From Patescibacteria group bacterium (GTDB taxonomy: Bacteria; Patescibacteriota; Microgenomatia; Levybacterales; UBA12049): 64,000 bases of DNA. Location of the stretch: NCBI GenBank assembly GCA_026004395.1, contig BPJB01000001.1, positions 161,370 through 225,369 on the forward strand, read 5' to 3'. The notes beneath the pieces are model-generated. The model did no database searches. It was given only the letters and a program-made list of their open reading frames with translations, and was not told the DNA's origin. This document shows, piece by piece, positions 9,245 through 58,756 of the stretch. A program made the translations under genes and the position numbers. Positions within the stretch are counted from its first letter, which is position 1. Every line of letters starts with the position of its first letter.

Positions 9245-10118
9245 ATATAAAGCAATTGTTCGTACTCTTCTTTATAGTGATATATTCGATTTTCCGCTAA
9301 CAGAGGCTGAAATTTATTATTATTTATTGACAGATACTAGAATTTCCAAGTCAGAGTTTAGACAGGCTTTTACTGAATTGCTTCCTCATCTTATGTATCA
9401 AAAACCTTACATTGCTCTCCCTAATAGAGGAAATATTATTCAAAGAAGAAGAAATAATGAACGATGGCTTAATCTCAAAAGAAGAGAGGCTTCTCAGATT
9501 GCTCGAATATTATCCTATATTCCAACGATATATTTTATTGGATTAAGTGGTGGAGTTGGTGTGGGAAGTGCCAATAAAGATGATGATATTGATTTTTTTA
9601 TAATTACAAAGAAAAACTGTATATATATCACAAGACTCATCAGTCTGTTAGTTCTTGCTATACTTGGAAAACGTAGAAAACGAGGAGAGAAGAATGCAAG
9701 GGATAAAATTTGTTTGAATATGTTTCTTGATGAATCTTCTCTAGCATTACCTTTAGATCGTCATGATATATATACCGCACATGAGATTGCTCAGATTTAT
9801 CCTCTAGTTGATAGAAATAATACTTATCTGCGATTTTTATCTGCCAATAAATGGATTGCTACATTTCTTGCTCATGCAACATTAGGGAGAAAAGTGAAAT
9901 TTCAGAAGTTACAGCAAAGTTTAGGAGAGGGCTTATTGAGAATCTTTGAGCCTATAGCTCGTTATTTGCAACTGAAGTATATTAAAAGGCATAGAACAAA
10001 AGAAATAGTGACGAATAATTTTATCGCATTCCATCCAAAAGACTATAGGTCAATTATAGTTAAAACTTATCAGCAAAAAATTAGAAAAAATTTACTCAAT
10101 TTTAGCTCTCTATTTTAA
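9234..10118 (+). CDS. Nucleotidyltransferase-fold (Pol-beta superfamily) domain protein, function unknown
   Basis: …FIGLSGGVGVGSANKDDDIDFFIIT… has the G[SG]x9-13Dx[DE]-like signature of minimal nucleotidyltransferases. Start taken at MGNKYK (ATG 9234), which overlaps the upstream stop. The ORF-track start 9201 is also possible. Confidence 0.4.
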   Translation: MGNKYKAIVRTLLYSDIFDFPLTEAEIYYYLLTDTRISKSEFRQAFTELLPHLMYQKPYIALPNRGNIIQRRRNNERWLNLKRREASQIARILSYIPTIYFIGLSGGVGVGSANKDDDIDFFIITKKNCIYITRLISLLVLAILGKRRKRGEKNARDKICLNMFLDESSLALPLDRHDIYTAHEIAQIYPLVDRNNTYLRFLSANKWIATFLAHATLGRKVKFQKLQQSLGEGLLRIFEPIARYLQLKYIKRHRTKEIVTNNFIAFHPKDYRSIIVKTYQQKIRKNLLNFSSLF

Positions 10119-16126: not shown

Positions 16127-16981
16127 ATGAGGAAGGCTCTATTTATTCTCATCCCATCCTTAATTCTCGCAACTTCTATTTTTTTTCTGATACAAATTTT
16201 TCTTATTCGTAGTAATGACAAAGGCGCACTTCAGGTAACAGCATCTCCCAAAAGCAAGGTATATCTCAATGGGGAGTTTATAGGGGAAACTCCTCTTTGC
16301 AGATGTGAACAGGATAATATGCTTAAAGTAGGCAAATATAATATCAAACTTGTTCCTACAACAAGTGGATTTTCTGAATTTCAAGAAAAGATTATTGTGT
16401 CAAAATCAGTATTGACAGTTGTTGATCATAAATTCGGTAAAGGAGCGACCTCTGAGGGAAGCATTATTACACTTCAGCCTCTAAAAGAGAGTAATACAAG
16501 ATCTCTTTTAGTACTTTCAATACCTGATAAATCTGAGGTACTTCTTGACAATACATCAGTAGGATTTACACCGGTACTTATTAAAGATATTACCGAGTCC
16601 GATCATGAGCTGATTATCAGAAAAAGCGGCTATGCAGAAAAAAAAGTGAAGATAAGAACACCCACAGGCTATCAATTATTAGCTAAGGTATATCTAGGTG
16701 TTGATGAGGAAGAGATTGTTTTATCTCCTACACCTTCTCCAACTTCAGCTTCTCCTTCTGCAACACCAACTCCTCCTATTCGGAAAGTAACTATTTTACA
16801 AACACCAGTAGGTTTTTTGCGAGTCAGAGCAGAAAGTAACATAGAATCTTCTGAAATCGGTAGAGTAACTCCCGGACAAGAGTTTGAGCTATTAGATGAG
16901 GTTAGAGGATGGTACAAGATTAAATTGTCTGATGGCAAAGAAGGTTGGATTAGTAATCAATATGCAAAGAAAATCGAATAA
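16127..16981 (+). CDS. Membrane-anchored PEGA-domain / SH3b-domain protein
   Basis: N-terminal TM, then two PEGA-like beta modules (…KVYLNGEFIGETPL…, …VLLDNTSVGFTPVLIK…ELIIRKSGY…), a P/T/S-rich linker (SPTPSPTSASPSATPTPP), and a C-terminal bacterial SH3-like domain (…VRAESNIESSEIGRVTPGQEFELLDEVRGWYKIKLSDGKEGWIS…). Confidence 0.6.
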   Translation: MRKALFILIPSLILATSIFFLIQIFLIRSNDKGALQVTASPKSKVYLNGEFIGETPLCRCEQDNMLKVGKYNIKLVPTTSGFSEFQEKIIVSKSVLTVVDHKFGKGATSEGSIITLQPLKESNTRSLLVLSIPDKSEVLLDNTSVGFTPVLIKDITESDHELIIRKSGYAEKKVKIRTPTGYQLLAKVYLGVDEEEIVLSPTPSPTSASPSATPTPPIRKVTILQTPVGFLRVRAESNIESSEIGRVTPGQEFELLDEVRGWYKIKLSDGKEGWISNQYAKKIE

Positions 16982-24650: not shown

Positions 24651-25070
24651 TTATTGTTCCCTCTTGCTTGTAAATAATAACTCAAGTGTTAAAAAAAGTG
24701 CCAGTAGTAACAAAAAGAAAAAGGGGTGGGTCAGATTATTAGCGCGAAAAACAAAATATATCACAGTAAATATACTGAGCAATATTCCATGTTTTCTGCT
24801 CTTTAATAAAAATGCAAAAAAAGAAAAAATAAAAAGCGCCAGTAACATATAAAAGATAATCACCACAGGAATAGATGCGAATTTAATCGAAAAATTCTGA
24901 TAAGGAGAAAGAGTTGTAATTATAATAAGAAGAGCAATAAAAGAAAGTATACTTAATATTAAGAATTTCCATGTGCGCCTCTTTCTTCGCATAGAATAAG
25001 TGTAGCAAATTTTTTTTATTTTAATTAAAAGGTTAATTTTCTTTTTTAAAATATTGACAAAAAATAGCAC
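24651..25070 (-). CDS. Small membrane protein (3 TM), unknown function
   Basis: A hydrophobic 139-aa ORF with no recognisable motif. Confidence 0.3.
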   Translation of the reverse strand: MLFFVNILKKKINLLIKIKKICYTYSMRRKRRTWKFLILSILSFIALLIIITTLSPYQNFSIKFASIPVVIIFYMLLALFIFSFFAFLLKSRKHGILLSIFTVIYFVFRANNLTHPFFFLLLLALFLTLELLFTSKREQ

Positions 25071-25090
25071 TCCTGTTATTATAGTGCTAA
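25054..25090 (+). promoter_or_regulatory. hrcA-grpE-dnaK promoter (TTGACA, 17 nt, TATTAT) overlapped by a CIRCE operator
   Basis: TTGACA at 25054-25059, TATTAT at 25077-25082. CIRCE: TAGCACTC-ctgttatta-TAGTGCTAA at 25065-25090 (consensus TTAGCACTC-N9-GAGTGCTAA), sitting directly upstream of hrcA. Confidence 0.8.
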
Positions 25091-28534: not shown

Positions 28535-29422
28535 ATGGCTAATTTAGATTATTATCAAATTTTAGGTGTTCCAAAAACAGCAACGCAGGATGAAATAAAA
28601 AAGGCTTATAGAAAATTAGCTTTGGAGTATCATCCTGATCGTAACAAAAGTAAAGAAGCAGAAGAAAAATTTAAAGAGATCAACAAAGCATATGAAGTGT
28701 TGTCTGATCCTCAGAAAAGACAAATGTACGATCAATACGGATCAGCTGCCTTTGAGCAGGGTGCAGCAGGTGGACCATTTGGAGGTTTTGGAGGATTTAG
28801 ACAACACACAGGTCGTTACGGACCTTTTACCTATACATACTCAACTAATGGTGCAGATTTTGATTTTGGTGGTTTCTCAGATCCTTTTGAGATTTTTGAA
28901 CAGTTTTTTGGAGGAGCATCGCCATTTGGCAGACGCGAGAGAAGACCAGTCTATTCCTTGACTCTTTCTTTCATGGAGGCTGTGAAAGGAGCTCAAAAGG
29001 AAGTAACTATAAACGGAAAGAGGCAAAAGATTAAGATTCCCCCTGGTGTTGATGATGGTACAAGAATTCGTTTTGGAGATTTTGATATTGTCTTTGATGT
29101 TGTTCCCGATCCTCGATTTGAAAGACAGGGCTCTGATGTGATTTCGGAAAAAGAAATCACGTTTCCTCAAGCAGTTCTTGGAGATCAGGTAGATGTTGAG
29201 ACAGTGGATGGAGTAGTAAAAATTCGTATTCCTCCAGGAACACAACCTAATACTTTGATAAGACTCAGAGGAAAAGGAATACCGCACTTAAGAGGTACGG
29301 GAAAAGGCGATCATTATGTTAGAATCAAAGTGGCTATTCCCAGAACAATAACAAGAAGACAAAAAGAACTTCTAGAAGAATTTCAGAAAGAAAGTTCGGG
29401 TAAAAATACTTCTTGGTTCTAA
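28535..29422 (+). CDS. dnaJ: J-domain co-chaperone (DnaJ/CbpA-like, G/F-rich region, no Cys-rich zinc-finger domain)
   Basis: [34 protein letters not shown] carries the HPD motif, followed by a G/F-rich linker ([10 protein letters not shown]). No CxxCxGxG repeats are present, so it is a type-II-like J protein. Confidence 0.75.
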
Positions 29423-29508: not shown

Positions 29509-29802
29509 ATGTGTCCTCCAAATGAAACACTGACTGAGATTGGGTGCTTGCCAACCGATCCTATCCAATTTATAGGAAGATTTTATGGTATTGGTTTAAG
29601 TCTTATTGGAGGAGTATCTCTCATTTTTATAATCATCGGAGGTTATATTATCCTTACATCGCAAGGTAATCCAGACCAAATTAATGTAGGTAAAAGTTAT
29701 ATATTTTATGCTATCCTAGGGCTACTTCTTGCTATTTTTGGTTTTGTCTTTATTGAGGTGGTTATGGTTGATATTTTACAAATTCCAGGATTTAGTACTT
29801 AG
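29509..29802 (+). CDS. Small two-helix membrane protein, TrbC/VirB2-pilin-like topology (tentative)
   Basis: A 97-aa protein with two hydrophobic helices separated by a short polar loop (…LTSQGNPDQ…). Its stop lies 7 nt upstream of the giant polytopic membrane protein gene. Confidence 0.45.
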   Translation: MCPPNETLTEIGCLPTDPIQFIGRFYGIGLSLIGGVSLIFIIIGGYIILTSQGNPDQINVGKSYIFYAILGLLLAIFGFVFIEVVMVDILQIPGFST

Positions 29803-29809
29803 ATAAAAT

Positions 29810-32800
29810 ATGAAAAAGCTTCTGCCCAGTGTATTGATAATTGGTCTTCTGTATCTATTCTTCTTTTTTCCTTTTCATGTGTTTGCTCAGGACGCAGGAT
29901 TACAATCTCCTATGACTATTACTACTACGACAGATCTGCCGCAAGAGGGAGCATGGATTAAAGATCCTGAGGTTACAAAGGTAGGGAAAAATGCTGCAAG
30001 ATCGGGAATGCTTCTTGATTGGACTCTTCAGGAATATCATTGGGCATCAACGAGCGCTGAGTCAGTGAGACCGCTGGCTGAATTCTGGACTGTTATTCAA
30101 AGAATAGTTTATTCACTCTTTCTTTTTGTGATTATTGTAACGGCTTTAATATTAATTATTACACGAGGCAAAAGCATTTCCGCTCGTCGTTTTTTGCCTA
30201 GATTCTTTTTCGTAATTTTATTGGTTACTTTCTCGTTTTCATTGGTTAAATTTGTCTACCAAATTACAGATATTTTTCAAGGTTTTTTTCTTAAAAATCC
30301 ACAAGGTCAGATTATTTCCTCAAGAGATCTTCTTTATGTTGGTTTTGATTATAAAGACTTCGTAGGATTGAGAGTTTTTGGTCAACAATATGATGAGTCA
30401 GCGATGATAGCGCTTCTTTTAGTTAAACTTACAGCTTTTACTTATTATGTAATGTCTATATTGCTTATTGTACGCAAAATTATATTATGGTTTTTTATTG
30501 TTGTATCTCCAATTTTTCCTCTCCTTCTTCTTTTCTATCCATTGCGTAATACTGCCAAAATCTGGTTAGGAGAATTTTTTCGTTGGGTATTATATGCTCC
30601 TTTATTTGCTATTTTCCTTTCAGGTCTTGTTAAGATGTGGCAAAGTTCTCTGCCTCTACCTTTTAATTTTATAGGGGAGAATGTCCGTGATAATGTAATC
30701 TATCCAACTGCAATCAATATTCTTCTTGGAGGTCCTCAACGATTGGTTACTATTGATAATAGTGTTAATCTGCCTAACACTTTTGCACTCTATTTGGTTG
30801 CTCTTTTAATGTTGTGGGTGGTTATTATTCTACCTTTTATCTTGCTTCAGATATTTCTTGATTATATGTACACATTCACTTTTAAGGATTCACCAATTTT
30901 CAAACAAATGATGGGTTTTATTAATAATCGTTTTATTCCTCCATCACCTCCGCCTTTGTCTCCTACTGCTCCTGGACAGCCTTCGGGTCTTGCTCGCAAT
31001 CTCCCATTTGGAAAGCGTATCTCTCTACCTCAAGGAGCTGGTATTGCACGTTCAATTCCTACTGATGTAGCTACTTCACAAAAAGCAAATATTGCTAGAC
31101 CATTTGTTGCATCAAAAGTGGATCAGTCTAAAGTTCTGCGTATGGTCAATCTTTCAATCCCAACAATGCAAGATATCGCACGTTTTGAACGAGCTAGATT
31201 AGAGAAGGATACACTCCAGAAAAAAGAAATTGAAAGAACGCGACAGATTCTTAGAAATATTGCAAACCCAATGAGTATCACAACTGCGTCTGAGAGAGAA
31301 CGCTTCATGCATATCCGTGAGATGCTGCTTAAAGAAAGTCAAAGTGGAAATCCTGTTGCGCTAACAGTTCTTCAAGCAGCCACAAACTATTATATGTCAA
31401 ATGTCTCACAACAATTTTTATCTCAATCACAGGCAACAGAAGAGATTATTCAAAATATTGCGCATCCTGAGAAGATCACCAATACTCTGGAGAGAGAAAG
31501 AATTCTTCAGCTTAAAGAGCAGATTATCAAATCAAGTAAAGAAAATAATCCTCTAGCAACTACTCTTTTAAAAGTTATTTCCCAAATTGAAAATTCTACC
31601 AAACAGCAACTGCAGAAAACATTAGAGAAAATTTCGCAACCTCAATTGATACAATCAACAGATGAAAAAGAAAAATATCAAGAACTTCGTGAGCGTATTG
31701 TTGCAGCCAGTAGATCAGGAAATCAACTGGCAGTACTTCTTCTTAAGTCATTGGAGTCTAAGACTTCTCTTGATCAAGTACAAGCTCTGAAGGAACAGCT
31801 TATTAAAGCTCGCGATGCAGGTAATCCTTTAGCTTCAGAAATACTGAATATTGCATCATCCACAACAAAAGAGTTGTCCAATGAACAGATCACAACGATT
31901 GAATCTGAAATTAGAGAAGCACAAAAAAGAGGAGATCCACTTGCATATCTACTGATGATGATGCTCTCTCAAAAAACAAAGTCGAAGACCGAGTCTCCAA
32001 CCCCGGCTACTTTGAAACTTAAAAAAGGCACATTCCCGGTTGTCAATAGAATTCAACAAGTTAGTCTTGATGATTATGAAGCAGTAAAGAAACTCTGGAA
32101 AGACAATTATCAAAATCTGGATATTCCTCAAGAAGTTGAAGGATTCAGATCACGAAGAGAATGGATCTTAAATGATATTGATTCAATACAAAAAACAATC
32201 AATTTGCTTACTTCACAAAATCCTCAAGATATAGAAGAGGGAATGAAGAATGTTTCCGATATTTTACCATTCCTTCTAATAGGAGGATTTTCACAGACTG
32301 AAATCATAGCTTATCTTAAAGCAAAAATGGAGGCTGCAAAATCTGTACTTGAAGAGTTGGATAAAGAGACAACAGAAGATCTTGTTGAGTCCAGACCTTC
32401 TAAAACTTCTTCTCAACATCAACTGCATATGAGTGTTCAGGAGAGTATAGATAATACGTCTAATCAATATGAAAATGAGATTAACAATTCTATTACAAAT
32501 TTTTACAGTATCAATGCTTCGATTGCACAACAGAGCGATCTGTCAACAAAATCAGTTAATTTTCAATCTGCACAAAATGCAAATTCCTTATTAACGTTAG
32601 TCAATCTTCCTCTGCCTACCATGCAAGATATTGTTAAGTATGAGAAGGCACTTTCTTCTAAGGATACAACTTCTAAAAAAGAGGTAGAAAAGTTTCTTCA
32701 GACGTTAAAGAAACTTGCAGATCCAGAACATCTTACACAAGAAGAAAAAGAAAAGATACAAGCAGTAAAAGATACTCTAGAGAAGGAGAGTAAACAAGGC

Positions 32801-35236
32801 AATATACTTGCAGAGTCTATTCTTACGGCTACAAAACTGAGCCAAGAGCAATTTACAGAAAAAGATATTCCAATTCTTTTACAGCTGTTGCGAACGATCA
32901 CCGATCCATCAATGGCAGAAGATCCTTCAGAACAAGAAACCTACAGAAGGTTATATTCTCAGCTAAGTAATGCCAAACAACAGGCACAGCCTCTAGCTTT
33001 GGAAATCTTTCGTCTAATTGATACATTAGCTCAAAAAGAGTCAGAGTTGACAGCCGTGTTTCTCCAAAAACTCAGCGACCCTGATTCTCTAACAGATGCT
33101 AACGGAAGATTGACATTTCTCAAACTGAAGGAAAGATTACAAGAAGAAAGCAGTAAAGGTAATCAACTCGCATCATTTATCCTTCAGGAAGCTAAAAGAG
33201 ATACTAATCTGATTAACGCTAATAAAGTTAGACTTAAGATTATTGAATCAGCTTTAGATGGTGATCAGTTGGCAAATTTTATTCTCTCAACTCATATACA
33301 GCAGATACCTACTGCTCTTCAAAATCAGGCTCTAACCGTATATAAAATCCTTAGAGATGAAAAACAAAAAGGAAATACTCTAGCACAATCACTATTGAGA
33401 TTATTAGAGTCGAAAAAGCAAACCACCTCAACTAAGATTCATCCTTTATTACCTAAACAGAATCGTATTCAACAAGTAAGCCTTGAAGATTATGAAGCTG
33501 TGAAGAAACTCTGGAAAGAAAATTTCCTTTCAGATGAGATAACAGGTTATTCGGATAAAGAAAGAGCAGAATGGATAAAAAAAGAGATTGCCAATGTTTC
33601 AGAGACAATTAACCTTCTTTCATCTTCAAATCCAGAAGATATTGAGCAGGGAATGAGTCGAGTTGGAGAAATTCTTCCCTTCCTTCTTATTGGAGGATTT
33701 TCACAAGGTGAGATATTAGGATATTTGAAAGCAAAATTGGAAGCTGGTAAATCAGCACTGGAAGAAATTGAAAATAATCAAGATGAGGTAGTTAGAGTAG
33801 AGAGTAATCTTAAGAGCAAAAAAAACGAAAAGACGTTATCTTTTAGTAAAGACTTTGTCGGAGAAATGCAGCAGACTGCTGCTAAAAAAACTGATGACAA
33901 AAAATATAGAGATAAAGAGGAACTAGTTTCATCTCTAAATCTACAAGCTAATCTTCCTCAAACTGAGACTCTTCTTAAGACGCTCTCTCTTCCTTTTTAT
34001 AATCTGAAGGACATTCCCTCTCTTGATATACAGCAGAAAATCACTCCTTCAGCAGCATTTTTAGAACTTGGTGCTCTTTTAAAACTTGCTCATCCGGATA
34101 AGATTAAAGATGCAAAAGAGAAAGAAAAGTTTGCACAAATACGTTCTGCTTTGGTTTCGCAAGCTCGTGATGGAGATGAGTATGCATCATCTATTCTTGC
34201 TGTAGCAGATATCATTTCAGAAAAGGCAGATTCTGAAGATATAGCTCTTCTTACACTTAAAACATTGCAAAAAATTGTATTTCCCGATCTTTGTAAGATA
34301 GATGAACAACAAGAGATGCATTCTCTTAATCAGCAATTACAACAGGAGATACAAAAAGGAAATCTTCTTGCGAGTGAAGGAGAGAAGCTAGCAATAGCAT
34401 ATAAACAAGCACAGCTAGATCAACTTGCTAACTTGATAAGTGAGCTTTATAGTGCGCAAGCAGGATCAGAAGATTCCGAAGAAACACTTCGCGTGTTGAG
34501 AAAACAATTAGAGAATGCTCGTGCAATTGGAAATAACATTGCAGAAAAAATTATTGCATTTGGCGAGAAACAACCCAGTAAATATGAAATTGAAAAACTT
34601 CTAATTTCTTTGTATGAAATCAAAGAAACAGATCGTCTTATATCAACTCTATTCACTTCCTATCTTGCACCTTCGTCTGAATTGTTGTCGCTTGCTAGAG
34701 CTTACTATGAAAAACTGCAAAAACAGAAAAATAATCCATTTGCAGCTTTGTTGATTAGACTAATCAGAAAACAATTACAACAAAGAAAAAGAACGGTCGC
34801 TTCTCTTAGTTTGCCACAACAAAATAGATTGCAACAAGTAAGTCTTGAAGATTATGAGGCAGTAAAGAGGCTCTGGTATGAAATTTATCTTCGTGGAGAT
34901 ATTCCGCTTGATGATGAGGGAGAAACACAATCTCGCGAACAATGGATTGCATCGGATAAAGAAAAACTAATTAACACAGTAAATCTTCTCACATCTGATG
35001 ATCCAGTGAATAATAGAAGAGCTATGGAACAGATTATAGATATTTTGCCATTCCTTCTTATTGGGGGATTCTCCAAAGATGAAATGGTGGGTTATTTAAA
35101 AGCAAAGAGAGAAGCAGCTGAGATGGCTTTGTCGGTACTTAGTGATCAAAAAGAATCTATTTTTTTAAATTCACAAAAAGAAGCTAATTCTCAATCAATA
35201 GCAAAAAACCAAAACTTAAAGAAAGATACTTTCTGA
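29810..35236 (+). CDS. Giant (1808 aa) polytopic membrane protein: signal peptide, a 5-6 TM N-terminal domain (VirB6/TrbL-like topology, tentative), a P-rich linker, and about 1400 aa of alpha-helical repeats in three super-modules
   Basis: One uninterrupted 5.4 kb frame. N-terminal cleavable-type signal (MKKLLPSVLIIGLLYLFFFFPFHVFAQDAG), TM helices between aa 95-370, then a PPSPPPLSPTAPGQPSG linker. After that come repeated ~40-aa units (…ERERF.xIRExLLKESQSGNPVALTVL…) and three copies of a ~115-aa module (…QQVSLEDYEAVKKLWKEN……ILPFLLIGGFSQ.EI.GYLKAK.EA…). Confidence 0.7.
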   Translation: MKKLLPSVLIIGLLYLFFFFPFHVFAQDAGLQSPMTITTTTDLPQEGAWIKDPEVTKVGKNAARSGMLLDWTLQEYHWASTSAESVRPLAEFWTVIQRIVYSLFLFVIIVTALILIITRGKSISARRFLPRFFFVILLVTFSFSLVKFVYQITDIFQGFFLKNPQGQIISSRDLLYVGFDYKDFVGLRVFGQQYDESAMIALLLVKLTAFTYYVMSILLIVRKIILWFFIVVSPIFPLLLLFYPLRNTAKIWLGEFFRWVLYAPLFAIFLSGLVKMWQSSLPLPFNFIGENVRDNVIYPTAINILLGGPQRLVTIDNSVNLPNTFALYLVALLMLWVVIILPFILLQIFLDYMYTFTFKDSPIFKQMMGFINNRFIPPSPPPLSPTAPGQPSGLARNLPFGKRISLPQGAGIARSIPTDVATSQKANIARPFVASKVDQSKVLRMVNLSIPTMQDIARFERARLEKDTLQKKEIERTRQILRNIANPMSITTASERERFMHIREMLLKESQSGNPVALTVLQAATNYYMSNVSQQFLSQSQATEEIIQNIAHPEKITNTLERERILQLKEQIIKSSKENNPLATTLLKVISQIENSTKQQLQKTLEKISQPQLIQSTDEKEKYQELRERIVAASRSGNQLAVLLLKSLESKTSLDQVQALKEQLIKARDAGNPLASEILNIASSTTKELSNEQITTIESEIREAQKRGDPLAYLLMMMLSQKTKSKTESPTPATLKLKKGTFPVVNRIQQVSLDDYEAVKKLWKDNYQNLDIPQEVEGFRSRREWILNDIDSIQKTINLLTSQNPQDIEEGMKNVSDILPFLLIGGFSQTEIIAYLKAKMEAAKSVLEELDKETTEDLVESRPSKTSSQHQLHMSVQESIDNTSNQYENEINNSITNFYSINASIAQQSDLSTKSVNFQSAQNANSLLTLVNLPLPTMQDIVKYEKALSSKDTTSKKEVEKFLQTLKKLADPEHLTQEEKEKIQAVKDTLEKESKQGNILAESILTATKLSQEQFTEKDIPILLQLLRTITDPSMAEDPSEQETYRRLYSQLSNAKQQAQPLALEIFRLIDTLAQKESELTAVFLQKLSDPDSLTDANGRLTFLKLKERLQEESSKGNQLASFILQEAKRDTNLINANKVRLKIIESALDGDQLANFILSTHIQQIPTALQNQALTVYKILRDEKQKGNTLAQSLLRLLESKKQTTSTKIHPLLPKQNRIQQVSLEDYEAVKKLWKENFLSDEITGYSDKERAEWIKKEIANVSETINLLSSSNPEDIEQGMSRVGEILPFLLIGGFSQGEILGYLKAKLEAGKSALEEIENNQDEVVRVESNLKSKKNEKTLSFSKDFVGEMQQTAAKKTDDKKYRDKEELVSSLNLQANLPQTETLLKTLSLPFYNLKDIPSLDIQQKITPSAAFLELGALLKLAHPDKIKDAKEKEKFAQIRSALVSQARDGDEYASSILAVADIISEKADSEDIALLTLKTLQKIVFPDLCKIDEQQEMHSLNQQLQQEIQKGNLLASEGEKLAIAYKQAQLDQLANLISELYSAQAGSEDSEETLRVLRKQLENARAIGNNIAEKIIAFGEKQPSKYEIEKLLISLYEIKETDRLISTLFTSYLAPSSELLSLARAYYEKLQKQKNNPFAALLIRLIRKQLQQRKRTVASLSLPQQNRLQQVSLEDYEAVKRLWYEIYLRGDIPLDDEGETQSREQWIASDKEKLINTVNLLTSDDPVNNRRAMEQIIDILPFLLIGGFSKDEMVGYLKAKREAAEMALSVLSDQKESIFLNSQKEANSQSIAKNQNLKKDTF
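32054..32360 (+). repeat. Intragenic repeat copy 1 (conserved ~300 bp core of a ~1.4 kb super-repeat)
   Basis: caacaagttagtcttgatgattatgaagcagtaaagaaactctggaaagac… through …attttaccattccttctaataggaggattttcacag… This recurs at 33470 and 34832 with about 80% identity. Confidence 0.7.
33470..33770 (+). repeat. Intragenic repeat copy 2
   Basis: caacaagtaagccttgaagattatgaagctgtgaagaaactctggaaagaaaat… through …attcttcccttccttcttattggaggattttcacaagg…. Confidence 0.7.
34832..35140 (+). repeat. Intragenic repeat copy 3
   Basis: caacaagtaagtcttgaagattatgaggcagtaaagaggctctggtatgaaatt… through …attttgccattccttcttattgggggattctccaaag…. Confidence 0.7.
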
Positions 35237-35290: not shown

Positions 35291-37966
35291 ATGCTAGGTA
35301 ATTTATTCACCCAACGAAAACCAGTGAAACCTTCCATCGCAAGTGATGAGCAAGCAGGAATTGCTCAGTCAAGCGTCTCCGAACAGCAAATATCTTCTTC
35401 AGGCACTACAGCTGCAGTTGGTTCGCGTATGGATCCTCTCATGCGCCAAAATCTTTCTGCTTTATCTCATCTTGATGCTCGAACAACACAGGTGCTTCAT
35501 CATGCACAGGATGAAACCAAACGAATTCGTCAGGCACAAATACGACCGGAACAACTTCTTCTTGGACTCCTCTATGATGAAGAAATATTTAAACTTCTTG
35601 AACAGTTTGAAGTGGATGTTGCCAAGCTTTCGCAAGAAATTCAATCAAAAGAACAGATTGGTACTTATCTAGGTCAACCCACACTCAGTAATGAGAGTAT
35701 TCAAATTTTTGAGCAAGCGTATCGTGAAACAAAGAAAAGAGGAGAAAGTTTCGTTTCTCCTGAGGATCTACTTATGGTTATCTGCGATAGTAACTATGAG
35801 GCTAGCCTTGTTCTTAAAGAAAAAGGTATCAAAAGAGAACAGATAGAAGAAAGGGTGGCAAAATCTTCAATATTTATTAAAGGCAGGAAATCGATTCTGC
35901 AGCAGTACGGAATTGATCTAACAGAGGAAGCACGGGAAGGGAAATTGGATCCTATTGCAGGCAGAGATAAAGAAATAGATAGACTTATACATATTTTACT
36001 TAGACGAACGAAAAATAATCCCATTATTATTGGCGAAGCAGGCGTGGGTAAGACAGCTTTGGTTGAAGGATTGGCTCAGAAGATAGTCTCTGGAAACGCT
36101 CCGAAAGAACTTCAAAATAAACGTATATTTCAGTTAGATCTTGCATCGCTTATTGCGGGAGCAAGTCATCGGGGAGAGTTTGAAGAGAGATTGAAGGGAG
36201 TTATTAATGAGACAATTGCTGCAGAAGGACAGATAATTCTTTTTATTGATGAAATTCATACCCTCATTGGTACTGGAGATACTGAAGGTGCACTTGATGC
36301 ATCCAATATAATTAAGCCACATTTGGCTAGAGGTCACATACAAGTTATTGGTACTACTACTACCTCTGAATACCGTAAACACTTTGAGAAGGATAAAGCA
36401 TTTGAAAGAAGATTCCAACCTGTTCTTTGCGAGGAACCAGATGAGTCTACAGCAGTTCAGATGTTGAAAGTGCTGCAACCAAAATATGAGAAATTTCACA
36501 CAGTTGTCTTCCCAGAAGATACACTCATTGCAGCAGTTAAGCTTTCTAAAAAATATATAGGTGATCGCTACTTGCCGGACAAAGCAGTTGATCTTCTTGA
36601 TGAAGCAGCAGCTCATGTCAAGCTTGAAATTGAGGGTGGCAAAAGATCAGGAAATACAGTTGAGAAAAAAGATATAGAACAAGTTGTGAGTAACTGGACA
36701 GGGATTCCTGTTACTCGATTGACTGAAGATGAAAGTCAAAAACTTCTCAATCTTGAGAAAAAGATTCATGAGCGACTTATAGATCAAGAAGAAGCAGTAA
36801 TTGCTGTGGCTGAGGCTGTTCGTCGAGGGAGGATAGGTCTTTCTGCGGCAAATCGTCCTATTGCTTCATTTATTTTTCTTGGTCCAACAGGAGTTGGCAA
36901 GACGGAATTGGCAAAGACATTAGCTGAGATTCTTTTTGGTCGAGACGATGCAATGGTCAGGCTAGACATGAGTGAATATATGGAAAAACATGAGGTAGCA
37001 AAACTTATCGGTGCTCCGCCTGGTTATGTGGGTTATGAAGAAGGAGGGCAGCTCACAGAGGCTGTACGGCAAAAGCCTTACTCAATTGTTCTCTTAGATG
37101 AGGTAGAGAAAGCCCATCCAGATGTTTTTAATATTCTTCTTCAGCTTTTGGAAGATGGAAGACTTACAGATAATAAAGGCAATACAATTTCATTTAAAAA
37201 TACTATTGTCATTTGCACTTCCAATATTGGCAGTAGTCTCATTCAACAGCAACTAAGTGAGAAAGAAGATTCAATGCAACAATCTCAAGAGGAGTTTAAT
37301 AAACAGTTTGAAGAATTAGCAAGTATGGTAAGTAATGAACTTCATAAATTCTTCCGTCCTGAACTTTTGAATAGATTTGATGATATCGTTATATTTAAAC
37401 CATTGCGTAAATCAGATATGAACGCAATTGCCAAGCTTGGAATAGCAAAAACAGCTAAGCTCCTTGAAGATCAAGGATATCACTTACAAACCACAGAGAA
37501 AGCTATTGCCGAGCTTGCTAAGGAAGGTTATGACCCAGTTTATGGGGCTCGTCCATTGAGACGTCTAATCCAAACAGCCATAGAGAACCAAATAGCACTT
37601 CTTATCATTGGCAGAACGTTTGTCCCAGGCGATACGATCATTGTTGATTTTGATGAGACACAGGGAGTATTTAGATTTAGTAAAGGGAGCGGTGAGAGAT
37701 TAGAGAACAGAGATAATCTGTCAGAGTCTTCTGAAAGTCTAAAGGAAAATGCTCAAGTTGAAGATACTTTTTCTGCCGAAACTTCAATCAATCAACCGGA
37801 TGCAGTGAGTCTTAATAATCAATCGGAAGACTCATCATCATCAATCTTAGCACACGATCCCCTCTCTGATATTAATGGATCATTATTAAGAAATAATCAG
37901 ACAGATATTCAGGGGCAGCCTCCATTATCTCAAGGAAGTGGAGATAATCTTACCACTACAAATTAG
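35291..37966 (+). CDS. Hsp100/Clp-family AAA+ ATPase with two intact nucleotide-binding domains and two Clp_N repeats, ClpA/ClpC-like, no long M-domain, no recognisable ClpP-binding (I/L)G(F/L) loop, S/Q-rich N- and C-terminal tails
   Basis: D1 has …IIIGEAGVGKTALVEGLA… (Walker A) and …ILFIDEIHTL… (Walker B). D2 has …FIFLGPTGVGKTELAK… and …SIVLLDEVEKAH…. Only about 35 aa lie between D1 and D2. The IG[FL]-loop position reads …NIGSSLIQQQ…. The C-terminal 120 aa are low complexity. Confidence 0.8.
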   Translation: MLGNLFTQRKPVKPSIASDEQAGIAQSSVSEQQISSSGTTAAVGSRMDPLMRQNLSALSHLDARTTQVLHHAQDETKRIRQAQIRPEQLLLGLLYDEEIFKLLEQFEVDVAKLSQEIQSKEQIGTYLGQPTLSNESIQIFEQAYRETKKRGESFVSPEDLLMVICDSNYEASLVLKEKGIKREQIEERVAKSSIFIKGRKSILQQYGIDLTEEAREGKLDPIAGRDKEIDRLIHILLRRTKNNPIIIGEAGVGKTALVEGLAQKIVSGNAPKELQNKRIFQLDLASLIAGASHRGEFEERLKGVINETIAAEGQIILFIDEIHTLIGTGDTEGALDASNIIKPHLARGHIQVIGTTTTSEYRKHFEKDKAFERRFQPVLCEEPDESTAVQMLKVLQPKYEKFHTVVFPEDTLIAAVKLSKKYIGDRYLPDKAVDLLDEAAAHVKLEIEGGKRSGNTVEKKDIEQVVSNWTGIPVTRLTEDESQKLLNLEKKIHERLIDQEEAVIAVAEAVRRGRIGLSAANRPIASFIFLGPTGVGKTELAKTLAEILFGRDDAMVRLDMSEYMEKHEVAKLIGAPPGYVGYEEGGQLTEAVRQKPYSIVLLDEVEKAHPDVFNILLQLLEDGRLTDNKGNTISFKNTIVICTSNIGSSLIQQQLSEKEDSMQQSQEEFNKQFEELASMVSNELHKFFRPELLNRFDDIVIFKPLRKSDMNAIAKLGIAKTAKLLEDQGYHLQTTEKAIAELAKEGYDPVYGARPLRRLIQTAIENQIALLIIGRTFVPGDTIIVDFDETQGVFRFSKGSGERLENRDNLSESSESLKENAQVEDTFSAETSINQPDAVSLNNQSEDSSSSILAHDPLSDINGSLLRNNQTDIQGQPPLSQGSGDNLTTTN

Positions 37967-38137: not shown

Positions 38138-38467
38138 ATGTTTTCGTACCTCAGATTTCCATATTATTTTGTTCGATTTTGGTTCATTGAAGCTCCATCC
38201 GGTATTTTGGATTTTTTTCTTTCTCTCAATCATGCATTTTTTCATTTTTTCTCTCTTCCATTATTTTTGCGTACATTTTTTCAACCTTTGAAAAATGAAT
38301 ACCGCACGGGTTTAGTAGGATTTTCTATAGGAATGGGTATTGCGGTTAAAACGGTGTTAATTTTGGTTGATATTTTACTTTTTATTATTCTTCTTGTTTT
38401 TGAAGCCGCAGTTTTAGTTGCATTTGTTATATTTCCTTTTTTAACAATAGCATTACTTTTATGGTAG
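38138..38467 (+). CDS. Small multi-pass membrane protein (3-4 TM)
   Basis: A strongly hydrophobic 109-aa ORF whose stop overlaps the start of the downstream Hsp100 paralog by 7 nt (ATGGTAG). Confidence 0.4.
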   Translation: MFSYLRFPYYFVRFWFIEAPSGILDFFLSLNHAFFHFFSLPLFLRTFFQPLKNEYRTGLVGFSIGMGIAVKTVLILVDILLFIILLVFEAAVLVAFVIFPFLTIALLLW

Positions 38468-40878
38468 CAGCGCAGGACGATTTTATAAAACTCTATGCAT
38501 TTTATAGATCTGCATTTATGCGTGCAGTTCGTCTCTTGATTTTTTTCATTCTTGGCACATATATTCTTTCTGCTTTTTCTACTAATACTTCTCCCAAATT
38601 TGCACTCTTTTTAATGAACATTTTTATCATGTTAGAGGTTTTTTATCATTTTAAGATATCCCGTTTACGACCATCTATGACAGTTCAACAAGCGGATGAT
38701 GATCATGCTCTTAAGGCATGTACTCTTGCTGTTCTCTATGCACTTTATACTGCACAATCTGCGGAGGAGTTAATCAGGCGACTTTTACGCTCAAAACAAG
38801 CAATCTTTTTACTAGAACGTATTCCTGTTAGTCCTGAAGAACTTCCTCATACTACAATTGAAGCTATTACACTCCTTAGATCTACTTTAAAGATTGCCAA
38901 GCTAGCAGGAGGAATCTATATTACTCCTGCTGATGTGATAGCAACATATCTTTTGTTGACTGAGGATCAATCAAAACTGCTCTTTTCCAAAAAAATCAAA
39001 CAAACTGAGCTGATAGAAATTTTGAGATGGGCAAGGTGGAGCTACCCCGAGGAGGAAAAGCACCATCCGCTGGAAATTCAAATTAGTGGTTCAGGAATTG
39101 GTGAAGGGCTTGTAGCAGGATGGACAATCGAGACAAAGAAGTACACTCGTGATTTTGGTATGAACGCAGTTAATGAAAATAACTCCATTATTGGAAGAGA
39201 GGAAGAGTTTCGTGCATTACAGGAAGCTCTCGTAAAAAATCAAAATAACAATGTTCTTCTTATAGGCGAGCAAGGTGCTGGAAAAGAAGGATTGGTACAG
39301 AAACTAGCTATTGATAGTTTTAATGGAAGAACAATTGCAGGTTTGAGGAATAAACGTATTCTTGAACTTCTTATTGGTCCATTAATTGCTGGTGTCTCAT
39401 CTTTAGGAGATCTAGAAGCGCGTCTTCAGGCAATTATTGAAGAAGTATCTCATGCTGGGAATATCATTCTTTATATACCTGAAGTGCAGGATATTCTCGG
39501 ATCGACATCTTTCTCTATGGATCTTTCTGGAGCTCTTTATCCTTATCTTAAAACTGGCAAACTTCCTGTCATTGCGTCTATCACTCCAGGTAATTTTAAG
39601 ACCTATCTTGAGGAAAAACCTCTTGCACGGCTTTTTACACCTATTTATCTTAATGAACCAAAAGAGGAACAAGCAAAACGTATATTGATGGAAAGATCAT
39701 TAGCAATTGAGCGAAAAACCAAAGTCATCATTACTTATTCAGCAATTATTGCTGCTGTAAAATTTGGTGATCGTTATGTACAGGAGATTAGACTGCCGGG
39801 TAGCGCAATTCGACTTCTTGAAGATGTTGTGCAAAGTGCAATGCAGCAGACAATGCCTGTATATTCTCTTACGCACCAAAAAATTCTTACAGAAGATTTC
39901 ATTGTTCAGAAGATTGAAGAGAGGATTGGTGTGTCTCTTTCTGAACCCACATCAGATGAAAGAAATCTTTTATTAAACTTAGAGAATAAACTTCATGAGC
40001 GGGTCATAGGTCAAGACGAGGCAATAAGAGTCATTGCGCAAGCTATTCGTAGACTTCGTTCTGGGATGATATCACGACCAAGACCCATATCATTTCTTTT
40101 CTTAGGACCAACTGGAGTGGGAAAAACAGAGACAGCAAAAGCGCTTGCCAGTATTTATTTTGGTGGTGAAAATTCTATGATTAGACTGGATATGAGTGAG
40201 TATTCCGATGAGATAGGAGAACGCAGGCTGCTTGGAGCTCCTCCAGGACAAGGAACAGAGCGTGGTGAGTTAACAGAACAAGTTCGAGATCATCCTTATT
40301 CTTTGATATTGTTGGATGAGTTTGAAAAAGCTCATCCTCGAATTTTGGATCTTTTTCTTCAAGTTTTGGATGATGGTCGTCTCACAGATAACAAAGGTAG
40401 AACAGTATCTTTTATAAATTCGCTGATTATTGCAACATCTAACGCAGGTTCTGAGTTTATTCGCGAAGAGGTCTTGAAAGGAACTCCATTAGATCAACAG
40501 TTTGAAGCAAAGCTTATTGAGTATTTACAAAATCATCATATTTTCAAACCTGAACTTCTCAATAGATTTGACGATATCATCACTTTTAGACCGCTTACCA
40601 AAGAGCAGATCAAAAAAATTTGTGCACTTATGCTTCAGCAGGTAGTGTCTGATTTGTTAGAAAAAGATATAGCTATAGTATGGGAAGATAAAGTTTTAGA
40701 TAAAATATCTTCAGAAGCATTTGATCCTCAGTTTGGAGCTCGTCCTATAAGAAGATATATTCAAAACAATATAGAAGATCTTCTTGCTCAAAAAATACTT
40801 GCAGGAGATGTGCAACGAGGGAATACTGTGCATATCACACTCAGAGACGATGATTCATTTGCAGTAACTGTTACCTAG
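38461..40878 (+). CDS. Membrane-anchored Hsp100/Clp-like AAA+ protein with degenerate D1 (pseudo-ATPase) and intact D2
   Basis: Two N-terminal TM helices (…LLIFFILGTYILSAF…, …FALFLMNIFIMLEVFY…). The D1 Walker A reads GEQGAGKEG (GKE instead of GKT/S) and the D1 Walker B reads ILYIPE (Pro in place of Asp). D2 is canonical: …LFLGPTGVGKTETAK…, …SLILLDEFEKAH…, a sensor-2 GAR in …GARPIRR…. No IGF loop. Confidence 0.65.
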   Translation: MVAAQDDFIKLYAFYRSAFMRAVRLLIFFILGTYILSAFSTNTSPKFALFLMNIFIMLEVFYHFKISRLRPSMTVQQADDDHALKACTLAVLYALYTAQSAEELIRRLLRSKQAIFLLERIPVSPEELPHTTIEAITLLRSTLKIAKLAGGIYITPADVIATYLLLTEDQSKLLFSKKIKQTELIEILRWARWSYPEEEKHHPLEIQISGSGIGEGLVAGWTIETKKYTRDFGMNAVNENNSIIGREEEFRALQEALVKNQNNNVLLIGEQGAGKEGLVQKLAIDSFNGRTIAGLRNKRILELLIGPLIAGVSSLGDLEARLQAIIEEVSHAGNIILYIPEVQDILGSTSFSMDLSGALYPYLKTGKLPVIASITPGNFKTYLEEKPLARLFTPIYLNEPKEEQAKRILMERSLAIERKTKVIITYSAIIAAVKFGDRYVQEIRLPGSAIRLLEDVVQSAMQQTMPVYSLTHQKILTEDFIVQKIEERIGVSLSEPTSDERNLLLNLENKLHERVIGQDEAIRVIAQAIRRLRSGMISRPRPISFLFLGPTGVGKTETAKALASIYFGGENSMIRLDMSEYSDEIGERRLLGAPPGQGTERGELTEQVRDHPYSLILLDEFEKAHPRILDLFLQVLDDGRLTDNKGRTVSFINSLIIATSNAGSEFIREEVLKGTPLDQQFEAKLIEYLQNHHIFKPELLNRFDDIITFRPLTKEQIKKICALMLQQVVSDLLEKDIAIVWEDKVLDKISSEAFDPQFGARPIRRYIQNNIEDLLAQKILAGDVQRGNTVHITLRDDDSFAVTVT

Positions 40879-40926: not shown

Positions 40927-41949
40927 ATGACTCAAAGACGCACGATCACAAAAAGGAAAAAATTAATAAGAAGGAGGAAACATCCATGGATGAAAATCCT
41001 ATCCTTTTTTCAAGGAGAGGGAGGAATCTTTGTCATTTTCATATTAGCATCTATAATGGCCGGAGCATTTGCGCTCACAGGTGGACTTACTCCAGTGCTT
41101 AATCCAGCTCCATCGTCTCAGGATCAAGTTATTATTGATGAGGACTCAGCAAAACGCAGTAATGAGAAATCTCTTCAACTAGTTGATATTAAGATTAAAC
41201 CAACAGATACTCCAACACCAACACCCTCGAGTACACCGACCCTAACACCCACACCGCAACAAGCGTGTTTGAATAAGACAGTTTTGACACTCATACTTGA
41301 TGTATCTACTTCAATGAATGCGAATAACAAGATGGGGCAGCTTAATGATGCCTTAAAAAATCTTATAAGTCAGTTAAACGATGAGACGGTGATAGGTGCT
41401 ATAGAATTTGCAGGCCTTGCTTCTTTTCCTAATACTAATGGTGCAAATACACTTCTTCCCTATACTCGGTATAAAGATAATAAATCTCTTATTCAGTCTC
41501 GATTAAGTAACTTACAAGTACATACAACTTCGCTCAACGATGGAACTTATTTTCGATCTGCCTTTACTAGAGCTATTAATAACATCAATGCTGTCAAGGG
41601 TATGTATGCAAGTCAAGGATATAATTTTGTAACAATTGTTTTTACTGATGGAGTACCAGAGACACAGTACACAGATCATGATTGTTTAGTTGAGATTAAC
41701 AATCCCTATATTTGTTTTTCCAATAAGCAAGATCCGCGTTATGATTTAACAGATAGACTCAAAAGTATATCTAATCGAGTGTATTCAATAGGTATTTATT
41801 CAGGACAAAGAGAAAGAGCTGTTTTAACACAAGCCAAACAATTACTTGCAGATATTGCATCAAAACCTTCGTACACAAAAAGTAGCGATAACCCTGCTGC
41901 AATAACTTCTCTTTTCCAAGATACTCTTTCTACTGTTTGTAATCAATAG
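40927..41949 (+). CDS. TM-anchored von Willebrand factor type A (vWA) domain protein with a T/P-rich linker
   Basis: N-terminal TM (…IFVIFILASIMAGAFALTGGL…), a linker TDTPTPTPSSTPTLTPTP, and a vWA core with the MIDAS motif …LILDVSTSMNAN… (DxSxS) plus …VTIVFTDGVPE… (the T…DG metal-site residues). Confidence 0.7.
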   Translation: MTQRRTITKRKKLIRRRKHPWMKILSFFQGEGGIFVIFILASIMAGAFALTGGLTPVLNPAPSSQDQVIIDEDSAKRSNEKSLQLVDIKIKPTDTPTPTPSSTPTLTPTPQQACLNKTVLTLILDVSTSMNANNKMGQLNDALKNLISQLNDETVIGAIEFAGLASFPNTNGANTLLPYTRYKDNKSLIQSRLSNLQVHTTSLNDGTYFRSAFTRAINNINAVKGMYASQGYNFVTIVFTDGVPETQYTDHDCLVEINNPYICFSNKQDPRYDLTDRLKSISNRVYSIGIYSGQRERAVLTQAKQLLADIASKPSYTKSSDNPAAITSLFQDTLSTVCNQ

Positions 41950-58036: not shown

Positions 58037-58756
58037 TCATATGATACGTGCTTGAACTATCAGCCTCATCCACGTTGTTCCCGGAGGAGTACAGGTGACA
58101 AGAGTAAGATAATTATCATCATAATTTTGAGAAAAGAAAGATGTATCGTTAGGATCTGTGATTGTGATTTTATAAATTCGATATGTATAGTTTACCCCAT
58201 CTATTGTCAATTCGACAAGATCCCCAACTGTTAAGGTATGAAGGTTAGCGAAAATGGTTTTATAATCCTTGGGATTGTATAGCTGTGGAAGTGTTGAGTG
58301 TCCGAAAATAACTGCATTGCCTTTATTGGGTGGTACTGATGTACCTCCGTAATGAACAAGGTGCTGAGAAAGATCATTATCAACAACAGAAACAATTGCT
58401 TTCTGAATAGAGAGTTTGGGGATACTTAAGTAATATTGCGTAACAGATGAGCTAGTTTTTCCTGCATTAAAACTAGGGTACCAATTTCTCGCATTGGTGT
58501 AATCTACTCCAGTTACAGCATCTGTTGTAGATCTGATAAAATTTTTGATTGATGACTCACTAATTACTGTTGTTTTGGGTATAGGTGTTACCACTCCTTG
58601 TTGTGCAAAAACAGGGTGAAGATAGAGCTGAAAAGAGATAAACGGAAATGAAACATAAGCAACTATAACCACCCCTAGACAACATACTAGAAGACTAAGG
58701 ATGCGGATAAATTTTCTGATATTATGTCGTTTTTCTTTTTTATAGAATCTAATCAT
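58037..58756 (-). CDS. Sortase-family transpeptidase (membrane-anchored)
   Basis: N-terminal TM. …NAVIFGHSTLP… carries the catalytic His, …LTLVTCTPPG… the TLxTC Cys motif, and a downstream Arg (…WMRLIV…). Confidence 0.75.
   Translation of the reverse strand: MIRFYKKEKRHNIRKFIRILSLLVCCLGVVIVAYVSFPFISFQLYLHPVFAQQGVVTPIPKTTVISESSIKNFIRSTTDAVTGVDYTNARNWYPSFNAGKTSSSVTQYYLSIPKLSIQKAIVSVVDNDLSQHLVHYGGTSVPPNKGNAVIFGHSTLPQLYNPKDYKTIFANLHTLTVGDLVELTIDGVNYTYRIYKITITDPNDTSFFSQNYDDNYLTLVTCTPPGTTWMRLIVQARII

Follow-up and report, generated by a model that had tools for sequence, protein, structure and literature searches.

We describe a giant gene in a stretch of 64,000 nucleotides from the genome of a Patescibacteria group bacterium (assembly GCA_026004395.1, contig BPJB01000001.1, forward-strand positions 161,370 to 225,369; hereafter the window). 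Three segments of this gene resemble one another as DNA. We found that they are ancient paralogous copies of an all-alpha protein module, which together constitute the hydrophilic tail at the C-terminus of a polytopic, VirB6/TrbL-like membrane protein. The genome is of the Levybacteria type within Patescibacteria. As judged from codon, tree and ortholog comparisons, the triplication is old and each copy has since been held by purifying selection. Overall, we consider it probable that the gene encodes an ancient and stable three-module VirB6-like protein whose modules would serve as a docking scaffold, with the cytoplasmic side favoured. The product is identical to the NCBI entry 'hypothetical protein KatS3mg089_0203 [Patescibacteria group bacterium]', and the gene is laid out as follows:

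29810..35236, plus strand: whole gene, 1808 aa; signal peptide, TrbL/VirB6-like polytopic domain and three helical modules
29810..30919, plus strand: TrbL/VirB6-like membrane domain, aa 1-370; signal-like N-terminal helix and 5-6 hydrophobic helices
30920..31147, plus strand: linker, aa 371-446; proline-rich, basic, low confidence in the AlphaFold2 (AF2) model; ratio of nonsynonymous to synonymous substitution (dN/dS) 0.44
31148..32371, plus strand: module 1, aa 447-854; NLSIPTMQDI, five helical sub-repeats (IANP…GNPLA) and C-domain 1
32372..32602, plus strand: inter-module linker 1, aa 855-931; low complexity, faster evolving, dN/dS 0.25
32603..33784, plus strand: module 2, aa 932-1325; NLPLPTMQDI, five sub-repeats and C-domain 2
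33785..33982, plus strand: inter-module linker 2, aa 1326-1391; only 50% identity to the ortholog that is 84% identical
33983..35155, plus strand: module 3, aa 1392-1782; degenerate LSLPFYNLKDI, four or five sub-repeats and C-domain 3
32030..32371, plus strand: C-domain copy 1, aa 741-854; holds the DNA-level core 32045-32355
33446..33784, plus strand: C-domain copy 2, aa 1213-1325; holds the DNA-level core 33461-33765
34808..35155, plus strand: C-domain copy 3, aa 1667-1782; holds the DNA-level core 34823-35106

The repeated segments and their spacing are real and far beyond chance. All three lie within a single intact open reading frame (ORF; 29810-35236). A repeat finder placed them at 32045, 33461 and 34823, with start-to-start distances of 1416 and 1362 nt, and reported a second repeat family about 210 nt downstream of the first in every copy. 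The initial annotation had described three related segments with these two spacings, and both values proved exact by the repeat finder and by BLASTN. When the gene was searched against itself, copy 1 matched copy 2 (32045-32355 and 33461-33765) with 69.3% identity (E = 5e-30) and copy 3 (32045-32325 and 34823-35106) with 67.9% identity (E = 1e-18), and copies 2 and 3 matched each other in two 69-nt blocks with 78-80% identity (E = 4e-12). The significance of the similarity rests on these E-values, because a shuffle control of the global alignment gave a shuffled mean of 57% identity under permissive gaps. The initial annotation had given the cores an identity of about 80%, which holds only for the two 69-nt blocks; cores of about 300 nt are 62-70% identical (70%, 67% and 65% when delimited as in that annotation, and 62-69% in codon alignments of the C-domain DNA). 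Similarly, the 1.4-kb tandem unit proposed there exists as a triplication that is collinear as protein, but as DNA whole modules are only 48-50% identical in codon alignments, and likeness is detectable only in the C-domain part of about 310 nt. The longest exact runs common to copies are 17, 14 and 11 nt. Tandem Repeats Finder, run on the whole window, reported nothing within the giant gene, because the program does not cover so long a period and the divergence between copies is too great.

At the protein level, the copies are related over the whole module. We cut the protein into pieces and compared the pieces by BLASTP: module 1 (residues 442-851) matches module 2 (residues 927-1321) with 36% identity over 419 aa (E = 2e-78), and module 3 matches modules 1 and 2 with 32% (E = 5e-42) and 31% identity (E = 7e-45), respectively. 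Every pair gives one collinear alignment, and therefore the whole module was the unit of duplication. Modules 1 and 2 start with NLSIPTMQDI (aa 447, nt 31148) and NLPLPTMQDI (aa 932, nt 32603), variants of an NL.IPTM.DI motif with an invariant Pro and Asp; this start had been ascribed to all three modules, but in module 3 it is degenerate (LSLPFYNLKDI, aa 1392). Within each module, IANP…ERE…GNPLA-like motifs mark about five helix-turn-helix sub-repeats, of which three are long (about 58-66 aa) and the following two are short (about 35 aa). The module ends in a conserved helical cap domain of about 110 aa, the C-domain (N..QQVSLEDYEAVKKLW…ILPFLLIGGFS…YLKAK.EAA), which is the source of the visible DNA similarity and has a mean column identity of about 65% across modules and species. 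Low-complexity linkers part the modules, and module 3 ends about 26 aa ahead of the stop codon. An AF2 model of module 1, made with 72 homologs, is all-alpha with a mean predicted local distance difference test score (pLDDT) of 85.8. Searches of NCBIfam with the whole protein and with the module gave nothing meaningful, and a family profile searched against PDB sequences matched only designed helical bundles (E = 0.03 or worse). We rejected membership of the TPR, Sel1, HEAT, ARM and ankyrin families because there was no profile or fold match.

The copies have been separate for a long time. In a codon test restricted to amino-acid-identical positions that offer a synonymous choice, we counted 35 identical codons where 28.7 were expected from codon usage, 29 where 24.0 were expected, and 27 where 21.0 were expected. 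Codon identity is barely above expectation, and synonymous sites are therefore near saturation; identity at third codon positions is 45-52% between copies. The DNA similarity that remains is a by-product: the genome is AT-rich (36% GC), and purifying selection has kept the domain conserved. Since this selection acts on all the copies, only the most constrained 310 nt or so are still alike as DNA.

The copies are also positionally orthologous to those of other species. In BLAST searches with C-domain 1, the first C-domains of more than 50 other proteins (65-75% identity) ranked ahead of copy 2 (rank 56) and copy 3 (rank 197) of the same protein, and copy 3 grouped by BLAST rank with the last C-domain of other proteins. 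A neighbor-joining tree of C-domains contains three positional clades. In 100, 84 and 78 of 100 bootstraps, respectively, copies 1, 2 and 3 lie closer to the domain at the corresponding position in P0004, a protein 45% identical overall to the giant-gene product, than to one another, and the three copies of the giant gene were monophyletic in 0 of 100. A point that tells against this grouping is that trees of about 115 columns give the second and third clades only 84% and 78% support. These comparisons indicate that the first and last modules correspond to both modules of the common two-module relatives, and that the middle module was added in an ancestor common to species that are now only about 45% identical.

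The closest comparison for copy number is P0002, the nearest relative (84% amino acid identity), because the 90% cluster of the giant-gene protein has a single member. P0002 comes from a different sample and an independent assembly, and has the same three modules, with indels of only 1-9 aa. Against P0002, the membrane domain (the most conserved part) has a dN/dS of 0.07; values for the C-domains are 0.04-0.20, for the helical arrays 0.16-0.24 and for the linkers 0.25-0.44, and there are no module indels. From the very short exact matches and 30-50% divergence we infer that the copies are implausible sites of homologous recombination or of assembly collapse. Contrary to what the initial annotation had supposed, the repeats are not active recombination substrates: the exact runs are too short, synonymous change is close to saturation, each copy is orthologous by position to those of other species, and P0002 has kept the same three. 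The hazard of assembly collapse or expansion raised in the same annotation is likewise not supported, given the short matches and the independently assembled P0002. An assembly artefact and gene conversion between the copies were also considered and rejected.

We then placed the gene in its family. With the full-length protein as query we obtained 184 homologs of 1089 to 2790 aa, and all the named ones are from Patescibacteria or Levybacteria. A C-domain profile, searched against 1.84 billion representatives, matched 340 proteins (family representatives counted at 50% identity), 311 of them at E ≤ 1e-10. Those species-representative genomes with a C-domain that have informative names are Levybacteria/Levyibacteriota, Gottesmanbacteria or "Patescibacteria group", so the family appears to be confined to Levybacteria and relatives. 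Many records of species-representative metagenome-assembled genomes with the gene (L011-L088, third-party annotation assemblies) are titled 'uncultured Gammaproteobacteria bacterium', which looks like a placeholder or wrong taxonomy. We counted C-domains in the 190 proteins with a complete N-terminal domain, all of which have a TrbL-like N-terminus:

1 C-domain copy: 57 proteins
2 C-domain copies: 95 proteins
3 C-domain copies: 33 proteins
4 C-domain copies: 3 proteins
5 C-domain copies: 2 proteins

In family proteins the last C-domain ends about 30 aa short of the C-terminus, and the module period spans 225-1070 aa (median 413). In the tree, the copies of one protein cluster together in P0003 (five modules), P0061 and P0075; module gain was therefore repeated and independent in some lineages. 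The internal modules of P0003 (2790 aa, locus L001 10001-18373) have a period of about 1100 nt and 80-82% nucleotide identity over about 180-220 nt. Their similarity reaches into the helical sub-repeat part, and these duplications are lineage-specific and much younger than those of the window gene. The variation in module number that the initial annotation anticipated is thus present among relatives, as 1 to 5 copies, but it is not an instability of the giant gene, whose nearest relative has the same three. Copy-number variation in this family is old and between lineages; it is not strain-level instability.

The N-terminal domain has, after the signal-like helix, hydrophobic segments at residues 93-117, 128-150, 198-220, 224-245, 254-276 and 325-349 (approximate boundaries, from hydropathy), and the long helices of an AF2 model of the domain (pLDDT 77.5) coincide with them. 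The tail that follows the last hydrophobic helix has about 1440 hydrophilic residues. "Extended VirB6" proteins are described as having five or more hydrophobic helices and large hydrophilic domains, the function of the extension being unknown in every case (PMC12857230, PMC3556328). The giant-gene protein has both features, with five or more hydrophobic helices in its N-terminal domain and a large hydrophilic C-terminal domain, and so fits this descriptive class.

From the distribution of charges and the conservation of the tail, the modules are somewhat more probably on the cytoplasmic than on the external side. In a five-span reading, in which the proline-rich segment 224-245 is re-entrant, all the K/R-rich loops and the post-membrane linker are on one side, and the linker after the last membrane helix is basic (13 K/R versus 6 D/E). 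The alternative is that the module array is external and forms a surface or wall-spanning helical fibre or adhesin on a stalk resembling a type IV secretion system (T4SS), with its length set by module number; a location of this kind has been proposed for other extended VirB6 proteins. We regard this as a real possibility, though the less likely of the two placements. A six-span reading, which counts six helices beyond the signal peptide, would place the tail on the outside, and several published observations also weigh against a cytoplasmic tail. The solved R388 VirB6 has only two membrane helices and its bulk is periplasmic or outside the membrane (PMC12857230), and surface exposure has been reported for some extended VirB6 proteins of Rickettsiales (PMC3556328). 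Patescibacteria are thought to be host-attached, and their T4SS and pilin arrays are essential in one tested system (PMC12102498, PMC12857230). An elongated, all-helical module, of variable length among family members (period 225-1070 aa), would also suit a fibre. However, the positive-inside pattern favours a cytoplasmic tail, and the strong conservation of the modules (about 65% mean column identity in the C-domain; dN/dS 0.04-0.24) is more readily explained by a conserved partner inside the cell than by a surface that faces the host. Host-facing pilin arrays of Patescibacteria and the repeats of Anaplasma VirB6-4 are, by contrast, highly variable (PMC12102498, PMC3556328). A single Cys is present in 1360 aa, and on reading the giant-gene protein sequence we saw no wall-anchor motif.

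With a cytoplasmic tail, the protein could work as follows. The membrane domain and a VirB2-like pilin encoded by the adjoining gene would form a membrane platform derived from a type IV secretion apparatus, and the repeated, rigid helical modules would be a multivalent docking scaffold for conserved partner proteins. Module number (1-5) would set the reach or the valency of the scaffold.

The assignment of this VirB2/VirB6 pair is borderline, and three weak but concordant signals point to it. First, the isolated N-terminal 440 aa score 26.1 bits against the Pfam TrbL model (PF04610), whose cut-off is 25.9; the homologs P0012, P0019 and P0061 score 27.8, 27.1 and 24.6 bits, so the family sits on the threshold. 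Second, when the predicted N-terminal domain was compared with the PDB by Foldseek, the four best matches were all chains of R388 TrwI/VirB6 (8rt9_F, 7o3v_F, 8rtd_L and 7o3v_J; probability 0.99-0.60), the top match having a probability of 0.99, E = 0.04, TM-scores of 0.33/0.49 and 13% identity over 338 aligned columns. Third, the gene immediately upstream of the giant gene is a candidate pilin gene:

29509..29802, plus strand: 97-aa two-helix membrane ORF, VirB2-like 'T4SS_pilin' candidate, 7 nt upstream of the giant gene

This ORF scores 18.6 bits (E = 0.002) against Pfam T4SS_pilin (PF18895), below the cut-off of 26.6, and a pilin-like NCBIfam model matches it at E = 3.8e-6, again under its cut-off. 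Its ortholog in locus L001, which is 59% identical, scores 30.5 bits on PF18895 and is above the cut-off. A pilin-like gene, either called or matched by Pfam, is at the same position in six of seven related loci (L001, L003, L004, L005, L007 and L008).

Two further observations concern the pilin-like genes. In the window (29509-29802) and in loci L005 (9669-9962) and L004 (9690-9992) the ORF begins at a conserved Cys-Pro motif and lacks a signal peptide, whereas the L001 ortholog (9582-9998) has a clear signal peptide of about 40 aa; the contrast reflects a problem of start codon or annotation, or else pilin insertion genuinely differs. Additional, longer genes with a T4SS_pilin domain are present in L004 (4122-5285, minus strand, 387 aa) and L008 (2655-3320, minus strand, 221 aa), divergent and just upstream of hrcA, and therefore the chaperone cluster in which the giant gene lies (see below) can be flanked by more than one pilin-like gene.

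Set against the VirB6-like scaffold reading are the following results. The full-length protein scores only 22.3 bits on TrbL (cut-off 25.9). The Foldseek matches to VirB6 are weak (E = 0.04-0.7, TM-scores 0.25-0.49), and the family profile found no VirB6 chain among PDB sequences. Our scan of ORFs across the 64-kb window turned up no VirB4, VirB3, VirB8 or other T4SS gene; the other ORFs scanned have housekeeping functions. The module is without a relative in Pfam, NCBIfam, PDB sequences or PDB folds, so no function can be transferred to it. Accordingly we considered that the N-terminal domain might not be a true VirB6 homolog at all, and that the protein might instead be a lineage-specific polytopic one that has a tail of helical repeats and no relation to type IV secretion. 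Hydrophobic composition would then account for the matches to TrbL and pilin models. Every sequence and fold match is indeed marginal, the gene is in a chaperone cluster rather than a T4SS locus, and the pilin-like ORF of the window is without a signal peptide and below the Pfam cut-off. We nevertheless think this unlikely, given TrbL scores at or above the cut-off for the isolated domain and two homologs, four best fold matches that are all VirB6 chains, and a conserved adjoining gene with orthologs that match T4SS_pilin above the cut-off. In addition, a survey of Patescibacteria T4SS (PMC12102498) describes VirB6 homologs as "scarce" in Microgenomatia, attributing this to divergence, and states that Microgenomatia VirB3 homologs mostly do not adjoin virB4. 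It is plausible that a family that scores on the borderline, as this VirB6-like one does, explains the scarcity. Our literature search for Levybacteria and type IV secretion found no paper.

The giant gene lies in a chaperone cluster, with the order hrcA (25100), grpE, dnaK, dnaJ (ending at 29422), the pilin-like ORF, the giant gene and clpB (35291-37966), followed by a second ClpB-like gene (38461-40878) and a gene for a VWA protein. The hrcA-grpE-dnaK-…-dnaJ-giant gene string is kept in all seven related loci that we examined (36-84% identity), two of which have additional genes between dnaK and dnaJ. The clpB gene directly follows the giant gene in four of the seven, and in a fifth it follows after one extra gene; placement of the gene from dnaJ to clpB is kept down to 36-38% identity. 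Because the family is confined to one clade, this shared order is weak evidence that the genes are functionally linked. Upstream of hrcA we noted the following site, which includes an inverted repeat resembling the controlling inverted repeat of chaperone expression (CIRCE):

25054-25082 and 25064-25090, plus strand: sigma-70-like promoter and overlapping CIRCE-like inverted repeat, respectively, 10 nt before hrcA

The promoter is the best in the region (TTGACA-17-TATTAT with an upstream TG), and the CIRCE-like repeat (ATAGCACTC-N9-TAGTGCTAA) has two mismatches to the consensus, with 0.02 such sites expected by chance. No other CIRCE-like site is present in the 64 kb, and clpB is therefore without a CIRCE of its own. 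We found no convincing terminator between the genes of the cluster, terminator-like sites being at chance level. From this arrangement it is plausible that the giant gene is co-transcribed with the chaperone genes, and possible that the site upstream of hrcA is the control point of the gene string, including the giant gene.

A more far-reaching proposal is that this family is the 'missing' VirB6 of Levybacteria/Microgenomatia, that its position between dnaJ and clpB is functional, and that the modules couple Hsp70/Hsp100 to the VirB2/VirB6 platform under heat-shock control by HrcA/CIRCE. The modules would then serve for docking in the cytoplasm, and the coupling might, for example, supply the platform with unfolded proteins or pilin subunits. 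We hold this as speculative and rather improbable; if true, it would be an undescribed chaperone link to a T4SS-derived machine, built on a new domain family.

Some neighbors in these loci have features of their own. The window ClpB (35291-37966) has an N-terminal extension of about 70 aa and a low-complexity C-terminal tail of about 100 aa, rich in Ser/Gln/Asn/Asp, beyond the standard domains. In the second ClpB-like protein (38461-40878, 805 aa), the second AAA+ and D2-small domains are good matches and the first nucleotide-binding domain is faint. It is directly followed by the VWA-domain gene (40927-41949), a pairing that is also present in L003 and L005 and that resembles an AAA+/VWA partnership. 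In L003 (14090-16867), L006 (10061-12652) and L008 (12732-16415), a large gene (863-1227 aa) lies directly after the VirB6-like gene, in the place that clpB occupies in the window, and these extra genes have no Pfam match.

Two other interpretations of the modules fare worse. One is that the modules are processed, with the start motifs and the fast-evolving linkers as cleavage sites, and that the released modules act separately and are possibly exported. The invariant Pro and Asp of NL.IPTM.DI at module starts and the disordered, less constrained linkers would suit this, and proteolytic release and translocation have been proposed for the C-terminal domains of extended VirB6 proteins (PMC3556328), but we identified no protease motif or dedicated protease gene, and with the motif degenerate in module 3 we consider processing very unlikely. 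The other, a recent and unstable tandem DNA duplication whose copies recombine, vary between strains or reflect mis-assembly, could draw on the tandem arrangement and regular spacing, the 1-5 modules of the family, the clustering and 80-82% nucleotide identity of the five P0003 modules (which make duplication recurrent in the family) and the strain-variable repeats of Anaplasma virB6-3 and virB6-4, which did cause mis-assembly (PMC3556328), but it is already largely refuted, and we give it almost no credence, in view of the nucleotide identity of 62-70% in the most similar 310 nt and 48-50% across entire modules, the 17-, 14- and 11-nt exact runs, the near-saturated synonymous sites, the positional orthology with copies in other species, the same three modules in the independently assembled P0002 (84% amino acid identity) and the silence of Tandem Repeats Finder on the gene.

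Elsewhere in the window, a sortase gene (58037-58756, minus strand) shares 8 nt with the end of a 773-aa ORF (58749-61070, minus strand) that has only weak Pfam matches, to Baseplate_J-like and GlxA beta-barrel domains; the two may be a pair of sortase and substrate or surface protein. The sole result of Tandem Repeats Finder in the window is at 16733-16777 (2.1 copies of a 21-nt unit), and encodes a Pro/Ser/Thr-rich linker inside a PEGA/SH3-domain ORF (16127-16981). A scan of the window with Rfam gave no matches.

As a repeat, then, the structure in the giant gene is an ordinary old domain triplication, which presents no assembly risk and no recombination hot spot. Its interest lies in the compact, clade-restricted VirB6-like family to which it belongs, with an undescribed and strongly conserved module in 1-5 copies. 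The family is a concrete candidate for the VirB6 of Microgenomatia, noted as near-absent in the survey, and is a defined target for work on topology, interactions and structure in the essential T4SS-like machinery of ultra-small bacteria.

Among known systems, the nearest are the extended VirB6 proteins of Rickettsiales (for example Anaplasma VirB6-3 and VirB6-4) and the 700-900-aa Gram-positive homologs of mating-pair formation class FA (MPF-FA). Like the giant-gene protein, these have an N-terminal domain of five or more hydrophobic helices that is TrbL/VirB6-like and a large hydrophilic extension, which can be internally repetitive with a lineage-dependent repeat number, and they are paired with genes for VirB2-like pilins. 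Unlike theirs, the extension of the giant-gene protein is a conserved and, by prediction, well-folded all-helical module in 1-5 copies, without a relation in Pfam, NCBIfam or PDB, and the gene is in a dnaK-clpB cluster and not in a vir locus. The near-identical DNA repeat units seen in R3/R4 of Anaplasma virB6-4 have no counterpart in the giant gene; the repeats of Anaplasma are near-identical and strain-variable, whereas the copies described here are ancient and stable. The T4SS of Patescibacteria (MPF-FATA-like, and essential in Ca. Southlakia epibionticum) belongs to the same phylum, likewise monoderm, and has VirB6-like proteins and VirB2-like pilins; its components are often scattered in Microgenomatia (PMC12102498). 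Our family differs from the surveyed systems in lying at the edge of the TrbL model, in being without virB4 in the window, and in its modular tail, of which a text search of the survey found no mention. The best structural match to the predicted N-terminal domain, albeit a weak one, is R388 TrwI/VirB6 (PDB 8rt9, 7o3v and 8rtd), a protein of about 270 aa that, unlike the giant-gene product, is without an extension. Finally, the modules resemble alpha-solenoids (TPR, Sel1, HEAT and ARM) in their tandem helix-turn-helix units of about 35-65 aa, their elongated all-alpha array and a plausible scaffold role, but their IANP…ERE…GNPLA motifs and the N..QQVS.EDYEAVK..W…ILPFLLIGGFS…YLKAK cap appear to be specific to this family.

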